From Rhodobacterales bacterium (GTDB lineage Bacteria; Pseudomonadota; Alphaproteobacteria; Rhodobacterales; Rhodobacteraceae): a DNA stretch of 49,748 bases. The stretch's first letter is position 1. Every line of letters begins with the position of its first letter. The stretch is taken from positions 1 to 49,748 of the forward strand of contig JANOQM010000079.1 of assembly GCA_031422295.1 (NCBI GenBank), read 5' to 3'. The position numbers and the translations under genes are program-made. The notes beneath the pieces were generated by a model. It searched no databases. It was not told the DNA's origin and saw only the letters and a program-made list of their open reading frames with translations. This document shows positions 246 to 49,144 of the stretch, in pieces.

Positions 246-374
246 ATCGACCGGCTGACCTTCAAGGAAATCGCCGCCGATATCGCCGCGCAATTCCCGC
301 CCGAACGCCGCGCATCGGTGTCCGGTCTGCATCGCTGGTTTCACCGGCAAAAGCGGCACGGGGCGGGCCAATGA
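15..374 (+). CDS. Open frame without a start codon, running through both palindrome arms and ending in an ATGA overlap with the next gene. It is probably the 3' part of a gene whose true 5' end is masked or replaced by the left palindrome arm.
   Basis: There are no stops from 15 to 372-374 (TGA). No ATG or GTG start is visible. The stop overlaps the ATG at 371, which suggests translational coupling. The C-terminal part (246-374) looks like a real protein, ending ...FKEIAADIAAQF...SGLHRWF. Confidence 0.2.
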   Translation, partial: RRSIRGQCRSATDCQRGAPRGAGQSGVRCLEQGLQQGFEGAVQDTLPPIDPHRAAHRVGSPSRIDTDPELTAFIRARIDRLTFKEIAADIAAQFPPERRASVSGLHRWFHRQKRHGAGQ

Positions 375-718
375 CGCATCAACTCCCCGTCCTGCCTTAC
401 CCTAAACCCACGGCGCAAGTCGCACCCTATGTCGAGGCCCTTGGGTTCGACATGGCAATCACCTTCCTGTTGCAATTCGGCGGCGCTGAACTTTACATCG
501 CCAAAGACCCGAAAAGCCGGGGCCAGCTCGAAGCGCTTGTTGGCGCAGATCGGGCCAAAGCGCTTGGCGCAATCGACCACCGCCTGCAACGCCGCGTCCC
601 GCTGGCCAAACCGTGGCTGGCCGTCTGCTTTGCAACCCGTGGCATGGGCACAGCCGAAATCGCCAGAATGCTACGAACTTCCGACACAAGCGTCAGAAAG
701 TGGTTGAAAACATGCTAA
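371..718 (+). CDS. Mor-family (phage Mu middle-operon regulator-like) transcriptional activator, 115 aa
   Basis: It carries a GG-x-ELYI-x-K motif (QFGGAELYIAKD) and a C-terminal HTH (GMGTAEIARMLRTSDTSVRKWL). Both are as in the Mu Mor/C family (PF08765-like). Confidence 0.5.
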   Translation: MTHQLPVLPYPKPTAQVAPYVEALGFDMAITFLLQFGGAELYIAKDPKSRGQLEALVGADRAKALGAIDHRLQRRVPLAKPWLAVCFATRGMGTAEIARMLRTSDTSVRKWLKTC

Positions 719-954: not shown

Positions 955-2562
955 TTAAAACCCGATCAATGCGTAGCCAATCATCACAAGGGCCGAAACA
1001 GTCGTGATTATTTTTGCGCCCTTGTAAACTGCACTTTTATCAATCTCATGGATAAGAGATGGGGTCGCTTTTATCATCAATAGGATGCGCGCTGCGCGAC
1101 CAAACACCCGAACCTTCTCATCCCGCATTGAAAGTGCCAGAGTCCGATCTGCGGGGCCCAACGTGCGGTAGTTGGCCGAGAACCCCTTGGTATCATCAAC
1201 AATCGCCAGAATATCTTGCTGCCAGTCTGCCTGCCCTTGGCCCTCTGTGATATCCACAAGGACAGGCATTGCCTCTGTCATCAAATCCAACGCTGCCTCG
1301 GGCATTTCCGCGAAGGCCTGTGTTTCAATCAGCTTACGGTTCTGCGCCACATCCGGGTGCGTGGCCCTGATTCCCAATGCCCCTTCTTCTAGGGCGCGGA
1401 TCAGTCCCAAATTCTCTTCCGAAGCCGGCAATTCATCCGTCGCAATCTGGCGCACCAGCCCGGCATGAATGGCAGTAAAGTCCATTTCAATCCGCTGCGG
1501 ATCATTTCCGTAACGAGCAAAAGTCCGGTGAAGTACTCGCGCCTCTCGCGACGTCATTTGAAGGCCGTTCCTAGTATCTATTAGGACGTCCTCAAGTGCA
1601 TCCTGCGCCTGAGAAAGAGTAGCGCCAAGTAGGTCAGGTTTCGATATTGCTTGCGGCGAGAAAAAGAATTTCCCGGTATTCTGATTGAACTCGACTTTTT
1701 CGGCCAACAGGAGTTTTTCGGCGAGATGCTCCGTCCTAGCGTCCTCAATCTTGCTCGAGAGGTGGCCTGCGCCTTGCGTCCAACCGGAATCCGGAATAAC
1801 GGCAATTCTCCGATAGAAACTCCAGTCAATTACCTTTCCTTCGACAAAAGCCTCATACCAATTGGACCAAAAACGCCAATCTTGGCCCGATTTCCAAAAC
1901 GCTTCGGTTACAGAGGTGTATTCCAGTGGGTATATCAATATAGATCGGTTTTTGTTCGATTCGACAGTTTCATTATCCTCAGGATCTAGTAATTCGCCTT
2001 CATATATCGTGTCAGTTAGCCCATCTTTTGCATCGTGAGTTGAAACGAAAAGATCAAAATCATCAATCAAAGAGCTAGCGTCTGTTCCAGAGCACTGTGT
2101 TCGTCCGATTGATCGAATGACGCGATTAATCAATACGGCACGTTGGTCAGGTGGAGTCAAAAGGCTATTCAATAAAGAATCACACGATTCAACGACGCGT
2201 ATCTGGTTGATTCGCTTTGGTTTTGGCTTTATGTTCTTGAGTTGGACAATTGTTTCCTTGATCCTAATATCAATCTCTGGATTAGGTTGAACCATCCAAG
2301 AAGATGATACAACTAAGGCACGCAAAACAGGAATTACAATTTCAGCTACTTCTGAGGCCTTCCAGTCGTCACCTATGTAGCCCTTTCTGAAATGCGGGGA
2401 CAGCGCTTCAAGTCCACGAAAAGCTGCACGCCAGGCTAACTGCAAGCTAGCACTGCTGCCGAGTTCCCCGTTGATTAAGTCTTCGAGGTGTAAGCCATAT
2501 GAATCAACTGTTTCACTTCTCGCCAAATCTGCACCCCGTTTTTTTACTGGCACAATCTGCAC
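955..2562 (-). CDS. Hypothetical protein, 535 aa, with a C-terminal transmembrane anchor. It is transcribed divergently from lepA.
   Basis: Long ORF. The hydrophobic C-terminus reads [18 protein letters not shown]. Composition is mosaic: the N-terminal-coding part (about 1650-2562) and the extreme 3' end are visibly AT-richer than the central part. I recognise no family motif. Confidence 0.55.
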
Positions 2563-2656
2563 CGTCTTTCCTCACACGTCCACCCCCATCCCCCCTTGCA
2601 AAACCGCCCTTTTCCCCCCAATACCGGCCTCTGAAACCCCCATCAGGCCGCATCCC

Positions 2657-4456
2657 ATGCCCGACCTCGCCCATATCCGCAATTTCTCGATCGTGGCCCA
2701 TATCGACCACGGTAAATCCACCCTTGCCGACCGGCTGATCCAGGAAACCGGCACCGTCAAGGACCGGGATATGAAAGAGCAGATGCTTGATTCGATGGAT
2801 ATCGAGCGGGAGCGGGGGATTACCATCAAGGCCAACACGGTCCGCCTTGATTACACAGCGAAAAACGGCGAACACTATGTGTTGAACCTGATCGACACCC
2901 CCGGCCACGTCGACTTTGCCTACGAGGTGTCGCGGTCAATGCGCGCCGTCGAAGGCTCGCTTCTGGTGGTCGATGCATCGCAAGGGGTCGAGGCGCAGAC
3001 CCTTGCCAATGTCTATCAGGCGCTGGATGCCGGGCATGAAATCGTCCCCGTCCTGAACAAGATCGACCTGCCCGCCGCCGAACCCGACCGCATCCGCCAG
3101 CAGATCGAAGACGTCATCGGGCTCGACGCGTCCAACGCCGTCCTGATTTCCGCCAAATCCGGCATCGGCATCCCGGATGTGCTCGAGGCTATCGTCCACC
3201 GCCTCCCCGCCCCTAAAGGCGACCGCGACGCGCCGCTCAAGGCGATGTTGGTCGACTCGTGGTACGACAGCTACCTCGGCGTCGTCGTGATGATCCGGGT
3301 GATCGACGGGGTCGTCCGTAAAGGGGATCGCGTGCGGATGATGCAGACCGACGCGGTCTATGGCATCGACACGCTGGCCGTGTTGAAACCGCAAATGGTG
3401 CCGATTGCCGAACTGGGGCCGGGCGAAATCGGCGTCCTCACCGCCAGCATCAAACAGGTCCGCGACACCCGCGTTGGCGATACGATCACCAGCGAACGCA
3501 AGGGCTGCGAGGTCGCTTTGCCCGGCTTCAAACCCGCGCAGCCCGTCGTGTTCTGCGGCCTGTTCCCGGTCGATGCGGCGCAATTCGAGGATCTGCGCGA
3601 CTCCATCGAAAAACTCGCCCTGAACGATGCGTCTTTCTCCTATGAAATGGAAACCTCGGCGGCCTTGGGGTTTGGTTTTCGCTGCGGCTTCCTCGGGCTG
3701 TTGCATCTTGAGGTGATCCGCGACCGGATCGAGCGGGAGTATAATATCGACCTGATCACCACCGCCCCCTCGGTGGTGTATCACCTCTATATGAAAGACG
3801 GCACGGTGCGCGAATTGCACAACCCCGCCGACATGCCCGACCTCACACTCATCGACCACCTCGAAGAGCCGCGGATCAAGGCCACGATCCTGGTGCCCGA
3901 CGATTACCTCGGCGATATCCTCAAACTCTGTCAGGACCGGCGCGGCGTGCAGCTTGACCTGACCTATGCCGGGTCCCGCGCCATGGTTGTTTACGACCTC
4001 CCCCTCAACGAAGTGGTGTTCGATTTCTATGATAGGCTGAAAAGTGTTACCAAAGGGTATGCATCGTTCGACTACCAACTCTCCGCCTATCAGGAGGATA
4101 ATCTGGTCAAGATGTCGATCCTCGTGAACGACGAACCGGTCGACGCCCTGTCGATGATGGTCCACCGCGACCGGGCCGATATGCGGGGCAGGGCGATGGT
4201 GGAGAAACTGAAAGAGCTGATCCCGCGGCACATGTTCAAGATCCAGATCCAGGCGGCGATTGGCGGCAAGGTGATCGCGCGGGAGACTTTGTCGGCGCTG
4301 CGCAAGGACGTGACGGCGAAATGCTATGGCGGCGATGCGACGCGGAAACGCAAGCTGCTGGACAAGCAGAAGGCCGGGAAAAAGAAGATGCGGCAGTTCG
4401 GGAAGGTCGAGATTCCGCAGGAGGCGTTTATTTCGGCGTTGAAGATGGATGGGTGA
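2657..4456 (+). CDS. lepA: Elongation factor 4 (LepA), 599 aa
   Basis: The N-terminus reads [27 protein letters not shown], with G-domain motifs DTPGHVDF and NKID. The length matches LepA. The track ORF 2471.. is an upstream in-frame extension. Confidence 0.95.
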
Positions 4457-4461
4457 ATAAA

Positions 4462-5577
4462 ATGACACTGTTAGAAGAAGTTGAAATCGGTTCTCGCAGA
4501 GTTGCTACTGATGGAATCACGATGAGCATCGGAGAGCTGTCTACATACTATCGTGATGGTGATTTAAATATTAACCCCGAGTTTCAGCGTGCATTCCGAT
4601 GGACAATTGATAAGAAATCAAATCTAATTGAGTCCATTCTACTTTCAATTCCTATCCCATCAATTTTTGTATTCGAGAATGAAGATGGAACGTGGGAATT
4701 AGTAGACGGCCTTCAAAGACTTTCCACTATCTTTGAATTTATGGGGATTCTCCGAGAGCCCGACAAGAGTGCACGTCCACCATCATGCCTTATCGAAACG
4801 ATTTACCTCCCTAATTTGAGCAATGCCGTTTGGGAGAGGTCTAAGCGAGTAGTCGGAATTTCAGAAAAGACGCAAGTGCCAATTGAATCGGCTCTACAAC
4901 GTCGAATAAGAACTGCTAGAATACAAGTTGAAATTCTAAGGTTTACTAGCGACGTTGATACCAAATTTGATTTATTCCAAAGATTAAACAGAGGTGGAGA
5001 AACGGCTAATGCGCAAGAAGTCAGAAATAGTCTTTGCGTGATGGCTAGTGAATCTGGATTCAAAAAATTAAAGGCATATGCCTCAGACTCACTTTTTCAG
5101 GAACTATTTAAGATAACTGACACTGGGAAGGAGCAGCAGAAGCATATTGAGTATTTAATGCGTCTAGTTGTTCATACTTATTTTGACTTTGATACAAAAA
5201 AGGACTTGGAGTCATTCATCGACGATGGGATTAAGAAAGTCCTAACGGATGAAAAAAAATACCCTTGGAAAATCAAAATTAACAAAGCTCTTGAGCGCAT
5301 CAATAGTGCCTGCGGGGATGTGGCGCTTCTCCCTCGACTTGGAGAAACTAGAACAGCAAATCGGGTAAGCCTTCGGCAGCTGGAAGCAATCGCCGTTGGG
5401 GTTTCTCGAAACATTGATGCGATTGAAAAAGTGAAAAACCCCGATGCTTTTCTAAAGAAAAAGATTGAGAGTTTTTGGGATCAGCCAGAGGTGGAAAAGA
5501 TGTCAGCTGCGGGATTGAATAGTAGTGTTCGGCTTCAAAGAACCGTTCCATTTGGTCTGACTTGGTTTAGGCCATAG
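4462..5577 (+). CDS. DUF262 (ParB/Srx-like; GmrSD N-terminal-type) domain protein, 371 aa
   Basis: Signature INPEFQRAFRWT...LIESILLSIPIPSIFVFE...WELVDGLQRLSTI (DGLQR at nt 4705-4719). The start ATG at 4462 follows the lepA stop by 5 nt. The gene is visibly AT-rich relative to lepA. Confidence 0.85.
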   Translation: MTLLEEVEIGSRRVATDGITMSIGELSTYYRDGDLNINPEFQRAFRWTIDKKSNLIESILLSIPIPSIFVFENEDGTWELVDGLQRLSTIFEFMGILREPDKSARPPSCLIETIYLPNLSNAVWERSKRVVGISEKTQVPIESALQRRIRTARIQVEILRFTSDVDTKFDLFQRLNRGGETANAQEVRNSLCVMASESGFKKLKAYASDSLFQELFKITDTGKEQQKHIEYLMRLVVHTYFDFDTKKDLESFIDDGIKKVLTDEKKYPWKIKINKALERINSACGDVALLPRLGETRTANRVSLRQLEAIAVGVSRNIDAIEKVKNPDAFLKKKIESFWDQPEVEKMSAAGLNSSVRLQRTVPFGLTWFRP

Positions 5578-5584
5578 AACTGGT

Positions 5585-6289
5585 ATGCGGTCTCACCTAA
5601 CCAAGATGATGGAGTGGCGAACGCTAGAAATTGCGGAGATGAAGGCACTTCTGCCGCGGCAGTCTGATATGGGATTTGAATTATTTTGCCGAGGAGCTAT
5701 GGTCCTGTGTTATGCTCACTGGGAAGGAGCATTTAATGATTGCCTGAAGGTAGTCGTAGGCACATTGAAGTCAGGGGACATTGACTTAAGTCGAGCACAT
5801 CCCGGAATTTCCGCGCTATTTTTCTCCCGAGATATTGATTCTTTCCTGAATAGAAGGATCGAAGAAGATACTGTCGTTGAGCACTTAATTGCGTTTCACT
5901 TCCTGTGTCAGAAGTCGGTGAAGGGAGAGGTTGCAAATGCTCGTGCTGCCACGACGAGGTCAAATCTTAATTGGAATCGAATAGAAGTGGTATTTTCTAT
6001 ATTCGGATTCAGTTGGCCAAAGCTTCATTTGAAGAAGATATTCATTGAGCACAAGTTGTCGCGTCTACGTCATTCAATAGCACACGGCGAAGCTCCAAGA
6101 TTGACTAGAGTTGTCGCGTTGCAGCAGTTAGACGAAACAAGCATATTGTTAGATGAGATAGCTGAATATTTCCATGCAGTATATAGTTCGATTTTGCTAC
6201 CCCTCTCTGACCAGCCAAAGGTCAATAATTTGACCGTGCTACTTCCCGCCAAGTCTGCGACTGAAAGCACACCCTACACCAGCCCATAA
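5585..6289 (+). CDS. HEPN-like protein (MAE_28990/MAE_18760-like family), 234 aa
   Basis: It has an R-x4-H HEPN motif, RHSIAH (R162 at nt 6068-6070, H167 at 6083-6085). It is co-oriented 8 nt after the DUF262 gene and is AT-rich like it. Confidence 0.7.
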   Translation: MRSHLTKMMEWRTLEIAEMKALLPRQSDMGFELFCRGAMVLCYAHWEGAFNDCLKVVVGTLKSGDIDLSRAHPGISALFFSRDIDSFLNRRIEEDTVVEHLIAFHFLCQKSVKGEVANARAATTRSNLNWNRIEVVFSIFGFSWPKLHLKKIFIEHKLSRLRHSIAHGEAPRLTRVVALQQLDETSILLDEIAEYFHAVYSSILLPLSDQPKVNNLTVLLPAKSATESTPYTSP

Positions 6290-6397
6290 ACCCCGCCCCG
6301 CCCGCCGACCGCGACGATTACCACCACCAAACGGCCATCCTCGATCAGGTACACCACCCGCCAATCCCCCGCTTAATTGCGAGGGTTTCACCCACCC

Positions 6398-6532
6398 TCA
6401 CATCCCCGCCTGCACCTGTGCCCCCTCAGCCGTAATCGCCTGCCCAGCGGACTGGATATCCTGCCCGGCACCCTTGACCGTCTCGCATCCGGCCAAAGCT
6501 ACTATCACCAAAACCATCATCACACGTGTCAT
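6398..6532 (-). CDS. Entericidin EcnA/B-family small lipoprotein, 44 aa (below the ORF-track size cutoff)
   Basis: Translation: MTRVMMVLVIVALAGCETVKGAGQDIQSAGQAITAEGAQVQAGM. It has a lipobox (LAGC) and an entericidin-like GAGxDIQxxGQAI core. Confidence 0.6.
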   Translation of the reverse strand: MTRVMMVLVIVALAGCETVKGAGQDIQSAGQAITAEGAQVQAGM

Positions 6533-6722
6533 CGGTCACTCCTTTGGTTGATCCACAACCCCAACGCGCGGAACCCCGCCGACGTTCCACAGGCGATGCA
6601 ACGGAACCGTCACCCATCGGCGTTATACTGACACAACCGCAATGATGGAGCCTGCCATGACCTACCTGCCACATGCCTTTCTGGCCGCGACGACGCTGTT
6701 GATCTTGGCCAGCATCATGACC

Positions 6723-7469
6723 TCAACCATGATCTAAAAATAACTCAACCGCCGCCACAAACTCGCGGGGTTTTTCAGCGTGCAGCCAGTGGCCCGCGTC
6801 GGGGATTTTGGCAAAGCGGGCGTGGGGGAACAGGGTGCGGATTTGGGCGCGGTGTTCGGGCAGCACATAGTCGGACTGCGCCCCGGTCAGGAACAAGACT
6901 GGCCCGGTGAACACGCTCGACACCGTAGGAAACCCCATGATCGCGGGCATATTCGCGGCCAGCGCATCCAGATTAAGGCGCCAGCGTTTCCCTGCCAGAT
7001 CAAAGCTTTGCAGGAAAAACGCGGCGAGGACCGGATCATCCAGCCCCATCATCCCGGCGGCCTCGGCCCTGGTCGTCACCGCTGTCAAATCAACCCGGCG
7101 CATCGCCGCGATCTTGTCCAGCTGACTGTGGCCATAGGCGACCGGGGCGATGTCGGCCACGATCAGACGGCGCACCAGATCGGGCCGGGTCAGCGCCAGA
7201 ATCATCGCCGCCTTGCCACCCATGGAATGGCCCAGAACATCGCATTGGCCCTGAATCATCCCGGCCAGATCATCAGCCATATCCGGATAAGTTTGCGAGC
7301 GATTCCAATCACTTGCGCCATGATTGCGCATATCCACAGCGACTACTGGGCGCGCCTCAGACAGGCGTTTGGCAATCACCCCCCAGTTCCGCGCCGACCC
7401 AAATAATCCGTGCGCAATCAACAGCTTGGGCCGATCCGTCGGGCCGTCATGGACAATCGTGTTCAACAT
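6723..7469 (-). CDS. Alpha/beta-fold hydrolase (esterase-like), 248 aa
   Basis: HGLFGS oxyanion region, GHSMGG nucleophile elbow, and a downstream His. Confidence 0.85.
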   Translation of the reverse strand: MLNTIVHDGPTDRPKLLIAHGLFGSARNWGVIAKRLSEARPVVAVDMRNHGASDWNRSQTYPDMADDLAGMIQGQCDVLGHSMGGKAAMILALTRPDLVRRLIVADIAPVAYGHSQLDKIAAMRRVDLTAVTTRAEAAGMMGLDDPVLAAFFLQSFDLAGKRWRLNLDALAANMPAIMGFPTVSSVFTGPVLFLTGAQSDYVLPEHRAQIRTLFPHARFAKIPDAGHWLHAEKPREFVAAVELFLDHG

Positions 7470-42800: not shown

Positions 42801-43196
42801 TTTACTATTCCTTTTCCAAAATCAATTTGTTCGGGCCAACTGGGTTTTCCAACCCGCTGTTAATGAAGTTCAAGGTTACCACACTTTACCTTTAATCCTG
42901 TTTCTGGGCTTTCGGATGTGAAATCTGTGGGCGTAATCGTGAGAATTACGTGAAATACAGGTGGTTTTGCCGCCAGCCTTGGTCTTGTCGATTTTTGGAC
43001 ATTTGCAGGTGGTGCTATTTTCCGCACCTTGCGATCAACGCCAGCGCCACGCCGCGCCTTTGACATCGGCCGCGCAAGCCCGCCCCGGTTGCCCGTCGCG
43101 TCGCAATACACCACGCCGCACTTTAGGGCTAATTCGTCCAACCGTCCGGTTTTCCCCCTTGTCGCGCCGGACCGGTCCCGGTAAACGACCGCAGTC

Positions 43197-43286
43197 GGAG
43201 GCGTGGCTGAGAGGCCGAAAGCACTCGGTTGCTAACTGAGCGTGGGGGGAACTCCACCGTGGGTTCGAATCCCACCGCCTCCGCCA
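43197..43286 (+). tRNA. tRNA-Ser (anticodon GCU), long variable arm, encoded CCA
   Basis: Acceptor stem ggaggcg/cgcctcc. Anticodon stem ctcgg/ctgag with loop ttGCTaa. Long extra arm. T-arm ggttcgaatcc. Confidence 0.9.
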
Positions 43287-43501
43287 CTTGCATGTCCTTC
43301 ATTCATCACACATGTCGTTGATGTTTATCTGTAAATCAGAATTTTAACTCGCTGACTTCGGGCCTAGGGCGCTCCTTCATTGAATTTTGCTATACATAAT
43401 GCTTTATATTCTTCGCTACATGGTGCCTGAATGCCGGGAGCTGAGCGGATCGATCGACCGCTTAGCGCAAATGCTGATACCCAACACATCGAGCTCATCA
43501 G

Positions 43502-44770
43502 ATGAAGATCACCTTGCGGGGCAATCAACTCTATCTCTACAGGCGCGTCCCGAAGCGTTACGGGGCCGTGGAGTCGCGCCAGTTTGTCTGGGTCAGCCTC
43601 CACACGGACTCGCAAACAGTGGCCGCGCTCAAGGCGACCACCGCCTGGGAGTTAATGGTCGAAGGCTGGGAGGCCAAGCTAGCCGGCGATACCACCGACG
43701 CTGAGGCCCGCTTTCAGGCGGCACGGGACCTCGCTGCAGTGCGCGGCTTTCGTTATCTGGATGCAGCGTCGGTTGCCAAACTGCCGCGCAGCGATTTGCT
43801 GGAGCGGATCGAAGCCGTCAAACAATCGCCGAAAGGCCCCGACTTTCGAGAGGCTGGAGCCTTTCTCGGCGGTGCCGCGGAACCTGAGATTACGATCAGC
43901 CGTGCACTGGAGCTTTACTGGACCCTGGCTGCAGATCGGACAATCGGCAAAAGCGATGACCAGCTTCGGCGCTGGAAAAACCCGTTGATCAAATCAGTCA
44001 AGAATTTGGTTGCCCAGATCGGGGACAAGCCGTTGTCGCATATCTCCACAGATGACATGCTCGATTTCAGGCAATGGTGGGTCGAAAGGATCGCCGAAAA
44101 AGGCTTGACCGCGAATAGCGCCAACAAGGACCTGATTCACATTGGCAGCATTTTGAAAACTGTGAACAACATGAAGCGCCTCGGACTAATCCTGCCACTT
44201 TCAGGGCTGTCGCTGAAAGAGGTTGGGCAGCAGGTTAGGCCCCCATTTAGCGACATTTGGATTAGGGACAAGCTACTTGCGCTAGGCGCATTGAGGGGCC
44301 TCAATACCGAGGCTCGCTGCATCCTGCTGGGCATGATCAATACCGGATATCGACCCAGTGAAGGGGCGGCACTCTTGCCGGCGCACATCCGGCTCGATCA
44401 CAAAGTGCCGCACATTTCCATCGAGGCAGATGTTCGGCAGTTGAAATCGGCCAACGCCAAGCGGATTATCCCTTTGACCGGGATCAGTCTTGCCGCACTG
44501 CGCGAATGCAGCAACGGCTTTCCGCGATACCGCGACAACCCGGGCCTGTCCGACACGATCAACAAGTTTCTGTCCGAGAACGAGCTGAAGGAGTCGCCCC
44601 GCCACTCTGTGTATTCGCTGCGCCACGCCTTTGAAGACAGAATGCTGGAAGCTAGTTTCGACGAGCGTATCAGACGGGATCTCTTGGGGCACAGCTTGGA
44701 TCGCGAGCGCTACGGCAAGGGGGGATCACTGGAACATACCCACGACCTCCTTCAGGCCATCGCCCTCTGA
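43502..44770 (+). CDS. int: Tyrosine-type site-specific integrase (phage-integrase family), 422 aa
   Basis: C-terminal catalytic region: ...RPSEGAAL..., HSVYSLRHAFEDRMLEA, and RRDLLGHSLDRERYGKG (the R..H-x-x-R..Y pattern). Confidence 0.8.
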   Translation: MKITLRGNQLYLYRRVPKRYGAVESRQFVWVSLHTDSQTVAALKATTAWELMVEGWEAKLAGDTTDAEARFQAARDLAAVRGFRYLDAASVAKLPRSDLLERIEAVKQSPKGPDFREAGAFLGGAAEPEITISRALELYWTLAADRTIGKSDDQLRRWKNPLIKSVKNLVAQIGDKPLSHISTDDMLDFRQWWVERIAEKGLTANSANKDLIHIGSILKTVNNMKRLGLILPLSGLSLKEVGQQVRPPFSDIWIRDKLLALGALRGLNTEARCILLGMINTGYRPSEGAALLPAHIRLDHKVPHISIEADVRQLKSANAKRIIPLTGISLAALRECSNGFPRYRDNPGLSDTINKFLSENELKESPRHSVYSLRHAFEDRMLEASFDERIRRDLLGHSLDRERYGKGGSLEHTHDLLQAIAL

Positions 44771-44937
44771 CGGGCTGTGATCGCTTTCGCACGGCGAACA
44801 ACATCGCCGCTGATCTCAATTGCGGCTAGTTCGACTTCAAGCCGCTCAAAAATTGGAACATAGACAGGATCGTGGGTCACCAAAGCTGCAACCGTCAAAT
44901 AGGCGGACTGCAATCGTTCGAGGACTGATTTCGCCAT
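44752..44937 (-). CDS. Small hypothetical ORF, 61 aa, convergent with the integrase and overlapping its 3' end by 19 nt
   Basis: ORF only. Confidence 0.2.
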   Translation of the reverse strand: MAKSVLERLQSAYLTVAALVTHDPVYVPIFERLEVELAAIEISGDVVRRAKAITARQRAMA

Positions 44938-45145
44938 TGGTCGTTCCGATCCTGAGTTCGATAATTGCCTTATAGCGGGGCGAGTTTGGACTGCGCGAGA
45001 TTCATGTGCCTTTTCGGCAACAGGCGGCTACTTAAGGCCGTGACTGCGTGAGTGACCGGACCCTCTGCATTTTGGGCGTCATCAGGCAGCTAAATCGGAC
45101 CACTATTGATGCTGGCCCAGAAGTCTCACGTGCGGCTGGACGCTG

Positions 45146-45496
45146 ATGCGACATTCCCAACAACGCGCTCGCTATAACTGTATCAAGCAACACGTTGATG
45201 TTGTAAGATTTTCAGTCGAAAGCGACCATACAACGACCATCAAGAAACCCCATATCGACACGCGGCTAGCAAAGTTCGTGGAAAAGCGGGTGCTCGAGTT
45301 GCGCCCTAGCAAAAGCCAGATCGAGATCGCGTCCGAGGCCGGCTTCGTAAACCCAAACATGCTGGCGATGATCAAGAGAGGCGCCGCGAAGCTGGCACTT
45401 GGCGTGGCTTCATTGAACCGGCGATCTTTTTGTCGGGTTTCGCCTCCGATGATCTTGGGTAAGGCCAACTCCTCTCATTGTGACATCGGGCGATAA
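45146..45496 (+). CDS. Hypothetical protein with a possible HTH, 116 aa (island cargo)
   Basis: ORF. A weak HTH-like stretch is present (SKSQIEIASEAGFVNPNMLAMIKRGAAKL). Confidence 0.3.
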   Translation: MRHSQQRARYNCIKQHVDVVRFSVESDHTTTIKKPHIDTRLAKFVEKRVLELRPSKSQIEIASEAGFVNPNMLAMIKRGAAKLALGVASLNRRSFCRVSPPMILGKANSSHCDIGR

Positions 45497-46900
45497 AGCA
45501 TTGGTCAGACTCAACCGGAGCCGTCCTGACAGCAAGGTGGAGGGATTCGTGACGAGGTAGCGAAGCTGTGCCCCGTTAGGCGACAAGCCGGCAGCACTGC
45601 GCCCCTTGCTCGGCAATGCGTCACCTGCCAGTTTGCGTGACCAGTTTGGGGCAAAGTGTTTATGAAAGGCCCACGACGCAGTCGAACACAGAAACGACTG
45701 GTTTGGAATCTCTGTGCAAGCGCCAGACGTTCGACCACGTGTCCACTTCGAGCGCGACCAGTATTTCGCTGATCACCGATCAGTGACTACGTGCGGTACG
45801 CATGGCATGAACATAGCGTGGATCGAAGGGATTTGCACCGAGTGGCGACGGGTCATACCAGTCAATATTGCCCTCTGCACTCCTGCGCTACGGTTGTTGG
45901 TCGCTCTTCATGCTCCTGAAAGGGTGCCTCTACGTCTGGGACTCAGCTGGAGCGTCGCTGACGGCAAGGTCAGTCCTGCCTGCCACCCCATTGTGAGTCA
46001 AAACCAAGACGGCCCCAGGTGACTCGCGTTGGGGCTTCTAGCGCGATGCCCTGTGTTCATCCGTCTCCATGGCAGCACCTCCTTGGTGCCGCAAGTGAAT
46101 CAGTGAGTTGGCCCGCACACAAGCGATTTAATGGGTCCTGAGCCTAGGTATGCTTCGAACTATTTCAAAGGGCAGAGTAAGACCATCCTGAGCCACAGCA
46201 TTTTGCTTGGTATACAGGCAATAGTAGAAATGCAAACTTCATAAAAGCTAAGAAACATTGCCACCACACCGTATTAATTCATTTAGATCGTCCTGCAGCC
46301 CACGACTCAGCATTTGCGAGCTGGTAACGATTTGCTCCTCTGATCGCACCGTCCAGCTGAATTTGATAAGGACCAACTCGATAAATTAGCGTATGGGCGG
46401 CGTCAATTCGCACATGGAGCATGAAGTCTGAAATTCTTTCGCTGGGCAGAATGATGATGTGAATTGTCTTGCGACTTATTTTGGGGCGATATTTCAGCTT
46501 CGAGAGTTTGTCGCGTATGTTTATTTTTGTTGGTGAGATAGTTTGTCCAAATAGGAAGTCACGCCACAGGCAATATAAAGTAATTATTGCGAGGGTTTTG
46601 CTTTATATATTGCAATGCAGTTGAAGATATGGCGCGTCATCCGCGCCCATTTCAGTATCAGAATGATTCAACGAGTTGACATAACTTCAATCTTCTGATC
46701 CCATTATTCTAGGACGGAATAGATGAAAATTTTTGTGAATTCGAAAGTTCTAATTTCTATGTGATTTTAATAGCTAGAGTTGTTGATGAGAGTGAAAAGC
46801 ACGTGGCACACTTGAGAAGATATCTGATCGTTGATAGGATCAATTTTCATTCCCAACGTCGTTGACGTCGGTTGCTGTTCCCAAAGGCAAGGAAGCTAGG

Positions 46901-49144
46901 GTGACTATTTTCTTCGCTCATTCAGCGAGTTCTTCAGACTCTCTCGACTGGCAAACGCTTCCCGAGCATCTGACGCAGGTCGCCAAAGCTGCGTCAGAGA
47001 GAGCCTTTCCTTTCGGGCTATCCCAGTTGACCCATCTTGCGGGCCTGTTTCACGATCTTGGAAAGTATGATCGAGCGTTTCAGCGCAAATTGTCTGGCGA
47101 GGTCAATCGGGTCGATCATTCGTCCGCCGGAGCTGTGGTTCTGTTGGATCAGGCGCAACCAAAAGATCGCATTCCAGTCGAGATGGTTGCCTATGCGATC
47201 TTGGGCCACCACGCCGGTTTGCCAGACTATGATACATCCGACGGGGCCAGCTTTCAGCGGCGTGTCGAAAACTACAATGACCAACTTGATCCGATCTGGA
47301 GACAACAAATCCAAGTGCCGCAACCAGATTTATCTGGCGAGCTTATGGCCCTGTTGCAAGGGCGTAGCAGTAAATTGACAGGCCCATTTGATATCTCGGT
47401 CGCCACGCGTATGCTGTTCTCCAGCCTTGTCGACGCCGATTTCCGCGATACCGAAGCGTTTTATGGCGAACTCGAAGGAACGACGAAGGACCGCGACTGG
47501 ACCGCACTGCAAATGGCTTTGCCGCAGTTTATAGCAGCCTTTAACGACCATATGGCAAAACTGCCCAACACTGCCATAGCCGTCAACACATTGCGACACG
47601 AGGTTTTGGCGCATGTGCGGGGCAGGGCAGGGATGTCGCCGGGTCTGTTCACCCTGACTGTGCCGACCGGGGGTGGCAAGACGCTGGCTTCATTGGGGTT
47701 TGCGCTGGATCATGCGCAGTTGCACGGGCATTCACGAATTATCTATGCCATCCCTTTCACCTCGATCATCGATCAGACCGCCGCGATTTTTCGGGGCATT
47801 CTTGGCGACATGAACGTTCTCGAGCACCACTCGGCCATCGAAGATGATGCGAGAAACGATAAGGACCGCAAAAGCCGTGACAAGGTGCAGCTGGCGATGG
47901 AGGATTGGGCGGCCCCGGTGGTCGTGACCACCAATGTGCAACTCTTCGAAAGCCTGTTTGCCGCCCGCCCCGGTCGTGCCCGCAAGCTGCACAACATCGC
48001 AGGGTCTGTTATCATTCTGGACGAGGCGCAGACCATACCGCGCCCGTTGCTTCTCCCCTGCCTGCGCATGCTGGATAGCATGGCGCGGCTGTTTCACTGC
48101 TCGATCGTGCTGTGCACGGCGACGCAACCTGCGGTGGACGAGGCTGTTTTGAAGGGTGGGCTGGCGCTGGCCGGGCGCGAACTGGCACCTGACCCGGCAG
48201 CGCTGGCCAGGCGGTTGCGACGGGTGCAAATTGGCCATGCTGGTGTCATGGATAACTTGGCTTTGGTGGCCGCGTTAAGTGGTGTGCAGCAGGGTCTGGT
48301 TGTGGTCAACAGTCGGGTTCATGCGCTGGATTTGTGGAACGATGCTAAAGGGTTGGACGGACTTTATCATTTGTCAACACGCCAATATGCAGCGCACCGG
48401 CGGCGTTTGCTGGCAATAATTCGCCAAAGGCTTGCCGATGGGCTGCCATGCCGCGTGATCTCGACCAGTTTGATCGAGGCGGGGGTGGATATTTCATTTC
48501 CTTGCGCATGGCGGGCCGAGGCGGGTTTGGATCAAATTGTGCAGGTTGCCGGACGGGTGCACCGCAATGGCGAGATGTCGCCAGAATTGGGGCGGGTGAC
48601 AGTCTTTACTCCCGATGGCTATGCCCCGCCGCCTGAAATCAAGGGGCTGATTGGCGATATGGCCCGGATGCGGGAAAAGTTTGACGACTTGCAATCGCCG
48701 GAAGCGATTCAGAGTTACTTTGGCGAGGTGTATTGGCGGCTGGATGCTGACTTGGACCGCGAAGGAATTGTGGGAAGTTTCAAGATCATCGGCAATCACA
48801 CCAATTTCAACTTCCGCACCGTGGCCGAAAAGTTTCGGATGATCGAAAGCGGCATGGTGCCGGTGATTATTCCATGGGATGCGGAGAGTAGCGCGGCTAT
48901 TTCAGACCTTGAAAAACCATGGATCAAATCCGGCCAGATTGCCCGCGCCCTGCAAACCCACCTCGTGACCGTTCCACCCAAAGCCCGCGACCGGATGCAG
49001 GCCTGCGGCAAGGGCTATTTCGCCCAGCCGAAAGTGCGGGGCGATCAGTTCTTTGTGCTGGAGGCTATGAGCCTTTATCACGAGGAAACCGGCCTGCATT
49101 GGGAAGATGCGGAATATCTGGGGATAGAAGCAGGGATAATTTAA
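46901..49144 (+). CDS. cas3: CRISPR-associated helicase/nuclease Cas3 (HD nuclease + SF2 helicase), type I; 747 aa from a GTG start. The frame stays open upstream to the TTG at 46862.
   Basis: HD motif FFAHSA...HLAGLFHDLGKYDRAFQ. Walker A VPTGGGKT. Motif II IILDEAQ. The GTG at 46901 is preceded by an aaggaag RBS. Confidence 0.88.
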   Translation: MTIFFAHSASSSDSLDWQTLPEHLTQVAKAASERAFPFGLSQLTHLAGLFHDLGKYDRAFQRKLSGEVNRVDHSSAGAVVLLDQAQPKDRIPVEMVAYAILGHHAGLPDYDTSDGASFQRRVENYNDQLDPIWRQQIQVPQPDLSGELMALLQGRSSKLTGPFDISVATRMLFSSLVDADFRDTEAFYGELEGTTKDRDWTALQMALPQFIAAFNDHMAKLPNTAIAVNTLRHEVLAHVRGRAGMSPGLFTLTVPTGGGKTLASLGFALDHAQLHGHSRIIYAIPFTSIIDQTAAIFRGILGDMNVLEHHSAIEDDARNDKDRKSRDKVQLAMEDWAAPVVVTTNVQLFESLFAARPGRARKLHNIAGSVIILDEAQTIPRPLLLPCLRMLDSMARLFHCSIVLCTATQPAVDEAVLKGGLALAGRELAPDPAALARRLRRVQIGHAGVMDNLALVAALSGVQQGLVVVNSRVHALDLWNDAKGLDGLYHLSTRQYAAHRRRLLAIIRQRLADGLPCRVISTSLIEAGVDISFPCAWRAEAGLDQIVQVAGRVHRNGEMSPELGRVTVFTPDGYAPPPEIKGLIGDMARMREKFDDLQSPEAIQSYFGEVYWRLDADLDREGIVGSFKIIGNHTNFNFRTVAEKFRMIESGMVPVIIPWDAESSAAISDLEKPWIKSGQIARALQTHLVTVPPKARDRMQACGKGYFAQPKVRGDQFFVLEAMSLYHEETGLHWEDAEYLGIEAGII

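Follow-up and report, generated by a model that had tools for sequence, protein, structure and literature searches.

An AT-rich DUF262 and HEPN gene pair directly behind lepA in a Rhodobacterales bacterium, a candidate anti-phage module

The stretch of DNA analyzed here (the window: 49,748 nucleotides, contig JANOQM010000079.1 of the Rhodobacterales bacterium assembly GCA_031422295.1) carries, immediately behind the translation factor gene lepA, two co-oriented genes, designated A and B, which encode a DUF262 protein of the ParB/sulfiredoxin fold and a small HEPN protein (Table 1). The pair is horizontally acquired and foreign in composition, and we consider it, with a probability of about 0.7, to be a two-gene anti-phage module of the abortive-infection type belonging to the DUF262 plus MAE_28990/RiboL-PSP-HEPN class. 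An earlier note on this DNA, made from the nucleotide sequence and a list of its open reading frames (ORFs), had described the two genes as a tightly linked AT-rich cassette and a candidate defence module. The coordinates it assigned to the pair and to the DGLQR and RHSIAH (R162/H167) motifs proved exact, and Pfam confirmed the flanking genes that it had named (lepA, entericidin and hydrolase).

The compositional claim is likewise borne out. The G+C content of 4462-6289 is 0.429, compared with 0.575 +/- 0.027 in 25 non-overlapping windows of the same size elsewhere in the stretch (z = -5.3), and among such windows this 1.83-kb segment has the lowest G+C content in the whole 49.7 kb. At third codon positions (GC3) the value is 0.37 for A and 0.46 for B as against 0.81 for lepA and 0.71 for the hydrolase gene. 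Both genes are under purifying selection: the ratio of nonsynonymous to synonymous substitution rates (dN/dS) relative to the closest relative, locus L001, is 0.024 for A and 0.070 for B, with 0.042 for lepA.

Table 1. Positions of the gene pair, its motifs and its flanking features in the window
Feature	Position	Strand	Details
lepA (elongation factor 4, EF4)	2657-4456	+	Pfam GTP_EFTU 2.1e-54, LepA_C 2.1e-49; left anchor of the slot
Gene A	4462-5577	+	371 aa; starts 5 nt past the lepA stop codon (4454-4456)
DUF262 (ParB/sulfiredoxin-fold) domain of A	4555-5034	+	residues 32-191 (Pfam envelope); mixed alpha/beta in the AlphaFold 2 (AF2) model
FQR motif of A (F41 Q42 R43), ParB-like nucleotide pocket	4582-4590	+	invariant in 30 homologues of 46-95% identity
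DGLQR motif of A (D82-R86), the DGxQR phosphate-contacting motif of DUF262	4705-4719	+	invariant in the same 30-homologue alignment
All-helical C-terminal domain of A	5050-5574	+	residues ~197-371; helices only in the AF2 model
Gene B	5585-6289	+	234 aa; starts 7 nt past the A stop codon
YAHWEG motif of B (Y43-G48), second conserved patch	5711-5728	+	E47 invariant; Y43, H45, W46 and G48 at least 90% conserved (n=65)
HEPN R-x4-H catalytic motif of B (R162 HSIA H167)	6068-6085	+	RHSIAH; R162 and H167 invariant (n=65)
Right edge of the block common to the window and L001	6290-6368	+	homology to L001 stops near 6368 (blastn)
Entericidin-family lipoprotein gene	6398-6532	-	44 aa; PF08085 2.6e-08; right-hand frame of the slot
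Alpha/beta hydrolase core gene	6723-7469	-	Abhydrolase_1 4.5e-22; right anchor of the slot

Domains and motifs of proteins A and B

Over its DUF262 domain, protein A matches a single Pfam model, GmrSD_N/DUF262 (PF03235), with an E-value of 7.7e-24, while no DUF1524 or HNH model matches it at E<=1, so that the earlier description of A as a DUF262 protein devoid of this nuclease domain is upheld. The AF2 model of A (predicted local distance difference test score, pLDDT, of 88) consists of an alpha/beta N-terminal domain and a C-terminal half built of helices alone. Foldseek matches of this model in the PDB are weak (best E 4e-3) yet consistent with one another, comprising ParB N-domains, CTP-bound ParB, Noc, KorB and BrxU. 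A sequence-profile search against the PDB returned nothing for A, and neither the A nor the B family has a solved structure. Among hidden Markov models (HMMs) of defence proteins in PADLOC-DB 2.0, that of NsnA from the Menshen system gives the best account of A (3.7e-53; residues 14-359 aligned with positions 44-369 of 385), followed by PD-T4-2_A (9.5e-33; residues 24-353 aligned with positions 41-345 of 363), whereas the SspE and HEC-05/06 models match weakly (best 2.6e-06) and over part of their 560-750 residues. The phage protein family phrog_2598 also matches (2e-61), and the relatives of A amount to more than 6600 cluster representatives (90% identity clusters).

The invariant DGxQR motif of A is known from related proteins: it is required for defence in BrxU and HEC-06 (10.1101/2024.01.29.577857), and in NsnA it has been modelled on the beta and gamma phosphates (PMC12065111). 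NsnA, DndB, GmrSD and SspE further share a DNA-binding domain termed ParBDB (PMC12065111), of which, by analogy, the helical C-terminal domain of A is probably the counterpart. Protein A is predicted to be a sensor or regulator of the NTPase type. A regulator of the DndB kind, or a part of a Dnd or Ssp phosphorothioation system, was also considered and rejected: A has no match to DndB (PF14072) at E<=1, and there are no dnd or ssp genes among its neighbours (lepA, entericidin and hydrolase).

Protein B matches HEPN_MAE_28990 (PF18737; 2.2e-17) nearly from end to end, residues 1-201 corresponding to positions 1-207 of the 211 in the profile, and HEPN_RiboL-PSP (PF18735; 1.5e-15), in agreement with the HEPN family named in the earlier note. 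It possesses both the alpha-helical HEPN fold, modelled by AlphaFold with a pLDDT of 91, and the conserved R-x4-6-H motif. Foldseek gave no meaningful match for B, and the sequence-profile search against the PDB gave marginal matches to HEPN proteins of the Csx1 type only (E ~4e-3). In an alignment of 65 family members sharing 16-48% identity, residues R12, E15, Y43, H45, W46, G48 and N127 are near-invariant in addition to the invariant E47, R162 and H167. A word-indexed search recovered 3 relatives of B and a full profile search 691 cluster representatives (50% identity clusters), nearly all of them stand-alone proteins of 200-230 residues. Since a word search finds so few of the relatives that a profile detects, against the more than 6600 found for A, B diverges much faster than A; where A proteins are 47-49% identical, their partner B proteins are only 24-26% identical. 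B is predicted to be an RNase effector. At E<=1 no NCBIfam model matches A, B or the 535-residue ORF upstream of lepA.

Linkage, mobility and the slot behind lepA

The close linkage of A and B that the earlier note described for this pair (a 7-nt gap) holds across the family. Metagenome sequences provided 80 loci with an A homologue, 62 of which extend at least 500 nt downstream, and in all 62 the A homologue is followed by an ORF of the B family. With the partner start taken as the start of the HMM alignment, this ORF begins between -15 and +156 nt from the end of A; its E-values have a median of 4e-53 and a worst value of 1.9e-6, and 60 of the 62 partner ORFs contain the Rx4H motif. The same pairing was found in seven further chromosomal contexts, on four plasmids and in at least one prophage, and in every context examined the A homologue leads into a MAE_28990/RiboL-PSP HEPN gene, typically with an overlap of a few bases. 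The linkage is thus obligate, and the module is widespread and mobile.

The surroundings of these copies vary. A pair is present in Sphingopyxis; in Herbaspirillum it adjoins an integrase fragment and BrnA, in Loktanella an OLD-like ATPase and Mob_Pre, and on plasmids of Bacillus cereus, Corynebacterium atrinae and Psychrobacter it adjoins in each case type II restriction-modification (R-M) genes. A 5.7-kb Enterobacter Col plasmid carries the pair and also RelE/ParE, and in a temperate Terrisporobacter prophage it is flanked by genes for a metalloprotease and a DNA methyltransferase, ~1.2 kb from repressor and anti-repressor genes. The GC3 of the module was 0.41-0.47 whatever the G+C content of the host (four single-genome loci), and over 48 metagenome loci the modules average ~10 G+C points below their flanks.

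A variant with a longer effector occurs in the P2-like Vibrio prophage 10N.286.55.C7_PE004, where a 340-residue DUF262-like gene is followed, near CI/apl, by a 355-residue protein annotated as RiboL-PSP-HEPN (2396-4667 of locus L182).

Obligate linkage in 62 of 62 loci, genes that overlap or nearly so and a putative neutralizer placed upstream are also what a selfish toxin-antitoxin or addiction cassette would display, with B as a HEPN RNase toxin and A as a protein antitoxin (the role played by the minimal nucleotidyltransferase, MNT, or by ParA/Soj in other HEPN pairs) stabilizing its own DNA segment and having no part in phage exclusion. Dyads of HEPN proteins and ATPases have been proposed as toxin-antitoxin systems (PMC3710099), and the pair resides on small plasmids such as the Enterobacter Col plasmid. 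This explanation is nonetheless unlikely. PD-T4-2, the one representative that has been tested, protects its native strain against phage; A, with 371 residues, an invariant NTPase-type motif and a putative DNA-binding domain, exceeds the needs of a simple antitoxin; and the pair often adjoins R-M genes or occupies accessory-gene positions in prophages. The roles of toxin-antitoxin pair and abortive-infection system are, moreover, not mutually exclusive. The HEPN-MNT toxin-antitoxin type itself (for example SO_3166/SO_3165; 7ae2) was rejected for lack of an MNT partner: there is no NTP_transf match in Pfam, the partner of B being a DUF262 protein of the ParB fold, and B is ~100 residues longer than the HEPN-MNT toxins.

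The R-M neighbours bear on a different alternative, in which A would itself be the effector, a ParB-fold nuclease or nickase acting on foreign or modified DNA in the manner of type IV GmrSD-like restriction, with B as an auxiliary RNase or a back-up. The pair adjoins methyltransferase or R-M genes in the Terrisporobacter phage locus and in those of Bacillus, Corynebacterium and Psychrobacter, the DUF262 proteins of GmrSD, BrxU and SspE recognize modified DNA, Foldseek matches A to BrxU, and an earlier survey named the partner a 'ParB nuclease' and recorded an association with methylases (PMC3710099). Against this, cutting in GmrSD, BrxU and SspE is performed by DUF1524, which is absent here; no methylase or R-M gene adjoins the pair in the window or in the other lepA-linked copies; and the invariant Rx4H motif together with strong purifying selection argues that B is catalytic rather than accessory. 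We regard a DNA-targeting role of this kind as quite unlikely.

In the window the pair forms part of a variable interval that begins at the lepA stop codon. The organism belongs to the Rhodobacterales (family Paracoccaceae or Rhodobacteraceae), and its lepA gene is best matched by that of a Rhodobacterales metagenome-assembled genome (MAG; 94%) and by those of Rhodobacter, Cypionkella and Pseudorhodobacter (87-88%). Comparison of the lepA-downstream region across relatives, as the earlier note had proposed, supports a variable insertion: in one-genome-per-species data neither A nor B follows lepA in any of the 80 closest lepA loci among the matches listed, and other cargo of the conflict type occupies the position. 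The pair was found behind lepA in loci L001-L008 (identity to the window 98% for lepA, 95% for A and 80% for B), L009 (84%, 70% and 49%) and L095 (84%, 58% and 39%), the last with an entericidin gene downstream of the pair as well, and A was found there in L101 (82% for lepA and 55% for A), whose contig ends 85 nt past A. In the window and in all of these loci the lepA stop codon is separated from the pair by 0-5 nt or overlaps it by 1 nt.

The history of the insertion does not follow that of lepA. Between the window and L001 the lepA-A-B block alone is homologous (2592-6368 versus 4131-7892 of L001; 85% identity by blastn), both flanks being unrelated. L009 and L095 are 90% identical in lepA and 59% in A, while the window and L009 are 84% identical in lepA and 70% in A, an incongruence suggesting that the pair has been replaced at least once. 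An ancient insertion passed on by vertical descent alone is therefore disfavoured, as A and B are incongruent with lepA and the AT-richness has persisted (three lineages, on a rough clock assumption).

Cargo of other kinds fills the same position elsewhere. Some 18 of 25 Rhodobacterales relatives have 0.5-1.5 kb of AT-rich DNA directly after lepA. A scan of 0-3.5 kb past lepA in L010-L034 and L083 (for example L022 8823-10205, L030 9235-10296, L032 8803-9471 and L018 9002-9691) identified a weak HNH-like match, DUF5677, DUF2971 (twice), an M48-like peptidase, HEPN pEK499_p136, Schlafen AlbA_2 with HATPase_c_4, RelA_SpoT, Fic and DUF6932, and no cargo in L013, L029 and L031. Orthologues of the hydrolase gene lie downstream of lepA in L009, L027, L028, L029 and L030 across gaps of ~1 kb to ~5.7 kb. 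Because the AT-rich cargo differs between genomes, the interval from lepA to the entericidin and hydrolase genes appears to be a hotspot for small conflict-type genes, the pair being one alternative cargo, and it offers a practical starting point in the search for other small defence or toxin genes of Rhodobacterales. In L083, an alphaproteobacterial MAG with a 77% identical lepA, the same anchor is followed by a DUF262-HEPN pair of a second type: 175 nt past lepA (2923-4490) lies a distant DUF262 gene, whose product is 28% identical to A and matches PD-T4-2_A at 4.6e-54, with a 154-residue HEPN-like ORF bearing the motif RNSVAH.

A hairpin spanning the lepA stop codon (atggacagcTAAggctgtccat-like), followed ~60 nt downstream by a second, GC-rich hairpin, is conserved in L012, L016, L018, L021, L024, L026, L028 and L030 and probably serves as the native terminator of lepA. 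Where cargo directly adjoins the stop codon the hairpin is absent, namely in the window, L001, L009, L095, L022 and L023.

The abutment of the pair on the lepA stop codon in the window, L001-L008, L009, L095 and L101, and the presence of a distant DUF262 and short HEPN-like pair behind lepA in L083, could be taken to indicate a housekeeping role, in which an RNase and an NTPase would work together with EF4 on ribosomes or mRNA. Such a role is highly improbable given that the pair is missing behind lepA in the 80 closest loci listed, that most family members are located away from lepA (1 of 80 metagenome loci is near it, and the plasmid and prophage copies are not), that unrelated cargo (Fic, RelA_SpoT, Schlafen-like, DUF2971) takes the slot in relatives and that the composition is foreign. 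lepA lies outside the module, though it is probably its transcriptional driver.

Known relatives and proposed mode of action

The earlier note could name no characterized system with a DUF262 and a HEPN protein as separate polypeptides of one operon; this is contradicted by PD-T4-2 and by operons described in 2013. PD-T4-2 of E. coli ECOR65 is listed as 'DUF262, HEPN' (Vassallo et al., 2022; PMC9519451). Cloned on a plasmid it protects E. coli MG1655 (K-12) against T4, and its deletion sensitizes the native ECOR65 strain (PMC9519451). HHpred assigned DUF262, DndB and ParBc to PD-T4-2A, and HEPN_RiboL-PSP (97.8%) and HEPN_MAE_28990 (96.9%) to PD-T4-2B (PMC9519451), while a 2023 review assigned PF03235 and PF18735 to the system. 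We compared the window with PD-T4-2 through the PADLOC HMMs and the published HHpred table. The two share a two-gene operon in which a DUF262/ParB-like protein lacking DUF1524 precedes a small stand-alone HEPN protein of the same RiboL-PSP and MAE_28990 families. They differ in host (a Rhodobacterales alphaproteobacterium for the window), in location at the 3' end of lepA and in the length of the second protein, B having 234 residues with the Rx4H motif at 162-167, whereas the HHpred alignments of PD-T4-2B end at ~163 and its motif region falls at ~111-130.

The same dyad had been recorded computationally in 2013 as operons of ParB with MAE_28990 HEPN and of ParB with RiboL-PSP HEPN (Anantharaman et al., PMC3710099), although the operons described there are associated with DNA methylase genes, of which there are none at the window pair. 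The pair is therefore a divergent new member of a known and once-validated class, and its architecture would not surprise a specialist.

Two further comparisons place A among related sensors. Its closest match, NsnA, belongs to Menshen NsnABC (Millman, 2022; Bell et al., 2025, PMC12065111), and the two proteins have in common the ParB-DUF262 domain with DGxQR and a helical C-terminus; in both systems a sensor is paired with a predicted RNase effector. The window nevertheless lacks NsnB (ABC-ATPase plus DUF3696) and the inPIN-BECR effector NsnC, and a HEPN gene follows A directly instead. Identity with Menshen was rejected, NsnB and NsnC being absent downstream and neither B nor the upstream 535-residue ORF matching any PADLOC model. 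Secondly, GmrSD, BrxU and SspE share with A the N-terminal DUF262 domain of the NTPase type and its DGxQR motif, and BrxU is among the top structural matches, but these are single polypeptides whose C-terminal DUF1524 HNH nuclease cuts or nicks DNA, whereas in the window a predicted HEPN RNase is supplied in trans. Type IV restriction of this sort was rejected on the lack of a DUF1524 or HNH match at E<=1 and on the all-helical C-terminal half of A.

In the proposed mechanism, A and B would be read through from lepA and translationally coupled. The DUF262 domain of A, with its FQR and DGLQR motifs, would serve as an NTP-binding or NTP-hydrolyzing switch and the helical C-terminus would bind nucleic acid, allowing A to sense a sign of infection, most probably DNA that is foreign or modified. 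In a state that depends on its nucleotide, A would then release or activate B, whose dimerization would create the R-x4-H active site of a HEPN RNase; cleavage of cellular RNA, phage RNA or both would bring translation and phage production to a stop. The earlier note had arrived at a similar logic of a sensor coupled to an RNase in the style of abortive infection, and by the same analogies this is reasonable.

Several points weigh against assigning the pair to anti-phage defence in this form. Experimentally validated members of the class are limited to E. coli PD-T4-2, for which our literature search, as far as it covered the field, turned up no published account of the mechanism, and every mechanistic step set out above is taken by analogy from GmrSD, BrxU, SspE, NsnA and other HEPN RNases. 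A scores higher on NsnA than on PD-T4-2_A, so that membership in PD-T4-2 proper is not established at the sequence level. The Pfam and PADLOC searches suggested in the earlier note gave a divided answer: Pfam returned hits for both proteins, but B matches no PADLOC model at E<=1, PD-T4-2_B included. The PD-T4-2_B model is matched by 1 of the 65 B-family members (6.5e-4) and by none of nine DUF262-partner HEPNs tested individually. Co-transcription with lepA is suggested by position, a promoter and terminator scan of 2300-6900 being at chance level, with counts not above those in shuffled sequence and none between lepA and A or after B. Finally, no defence genes adjoin the pair in the window, where its neighbours are lepA, entericidin and hydrolase.

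The PD-T4-2_B model, however, appears to be narrow, because the partner HEPNs of every other DUF262-HEPN pair tested miss it as well, seven other partners and the short HEPN of L083 among them. The Enterobacter Col plasmid pair was tried as a bridge to PD-T4-2 and rejected, since its A protein is no closer to PD-T4-2_A (1.4e-27) and its B protein misses PD-T4-2_B. With B matching no model and A drawn towards Menshen NsnA, PADLOC-DB 2.0 would not call the pair as a system. PD-T4-2-like systems are probably under-called by PADLOC, and because the DUF262-HEPN family is not called by PADLOC-DB 2.0, defence inventories of Alphaproteobacteria are probably undercounted.

Two linked ideas extend the anti-phage interpretation and are put forward jointly as a tentative and rather doubtful proposal: that the DUF262-HEPN family is a distinct clade, missed by PADLOC, in which a ParB-type switch gates a HEPN RNase, and that the 3' end of lepA in Rhodobacterales is an undescribed cargo slot. 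Pairs of a large DUF262 protein (~370 residues) with a MAE_28990-HEPN protein (~200-230 residues) may form such a clade, missed as a complete system by PADLOC-DB 2.0. If so, a HEPN RNase would be under the direct control of a ParB-type nucleotide switch, of the sort that acts as a CTP-gated clamp in ParB, Noc and KorB, a new coupling of sensor to effector that would amount to more than another PD-T4-2. In the proposed slot, diverse conflict genes placed 0-5 nt past the lepA stop codon would owe their expression to a core translation-factor gene, through read-through or translational coupling. DUF262 and HEPN pairs are numerous, to judge by the cluster representatives of A and B, and are distributed over chromosomes, plasmids and prophages; the size of the family, the failure of PADLOC-DB 2.0 to call the pair and the lepA hotspot are the points of practical use. 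The invariant FQR/DGxQR and E/Rx4H residues, combined with obligate pairing, furnish a clean set of mutants for the control of an RNase by a ParB-fold NTPase.

Other features of the window

Directly upstream of lepA and divergent from it lies the 535-residue ORF mentioned above (955-2562, minus strand; G+C content 0.49), which is matched by no Pfam, PADLOC, NCBIfam or PHROG model. A homologue 44% identical over 319 residues is located upstream of lepA in Aliiroseovarius marinus (L024), while the equivalent position in L001 is taken by an unrelated gene of 534 residues, so that variability seems to extend to the upstream side of lepA.

Towards the right-hand end of the window, a 760-residue ORF (46862-49144, plus strand) contains HD and DEAD-box helicase motifs and resembles Cas3 on visual inspection only; the DNA in front of it is AT-rich (46001-47000; G+C content 0.45). 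No CRISPR-like repeats were found near it in 43000-47000, and a tRNA-Ser(gct) gene is present at 43197-43286. At the opposite end, a 115-residue ORF (371-718, plus strand) matches phrog_836, 'late transcriptional activator' (9e-18), a hint of a prophage or phage-derived element at the left border of the window.

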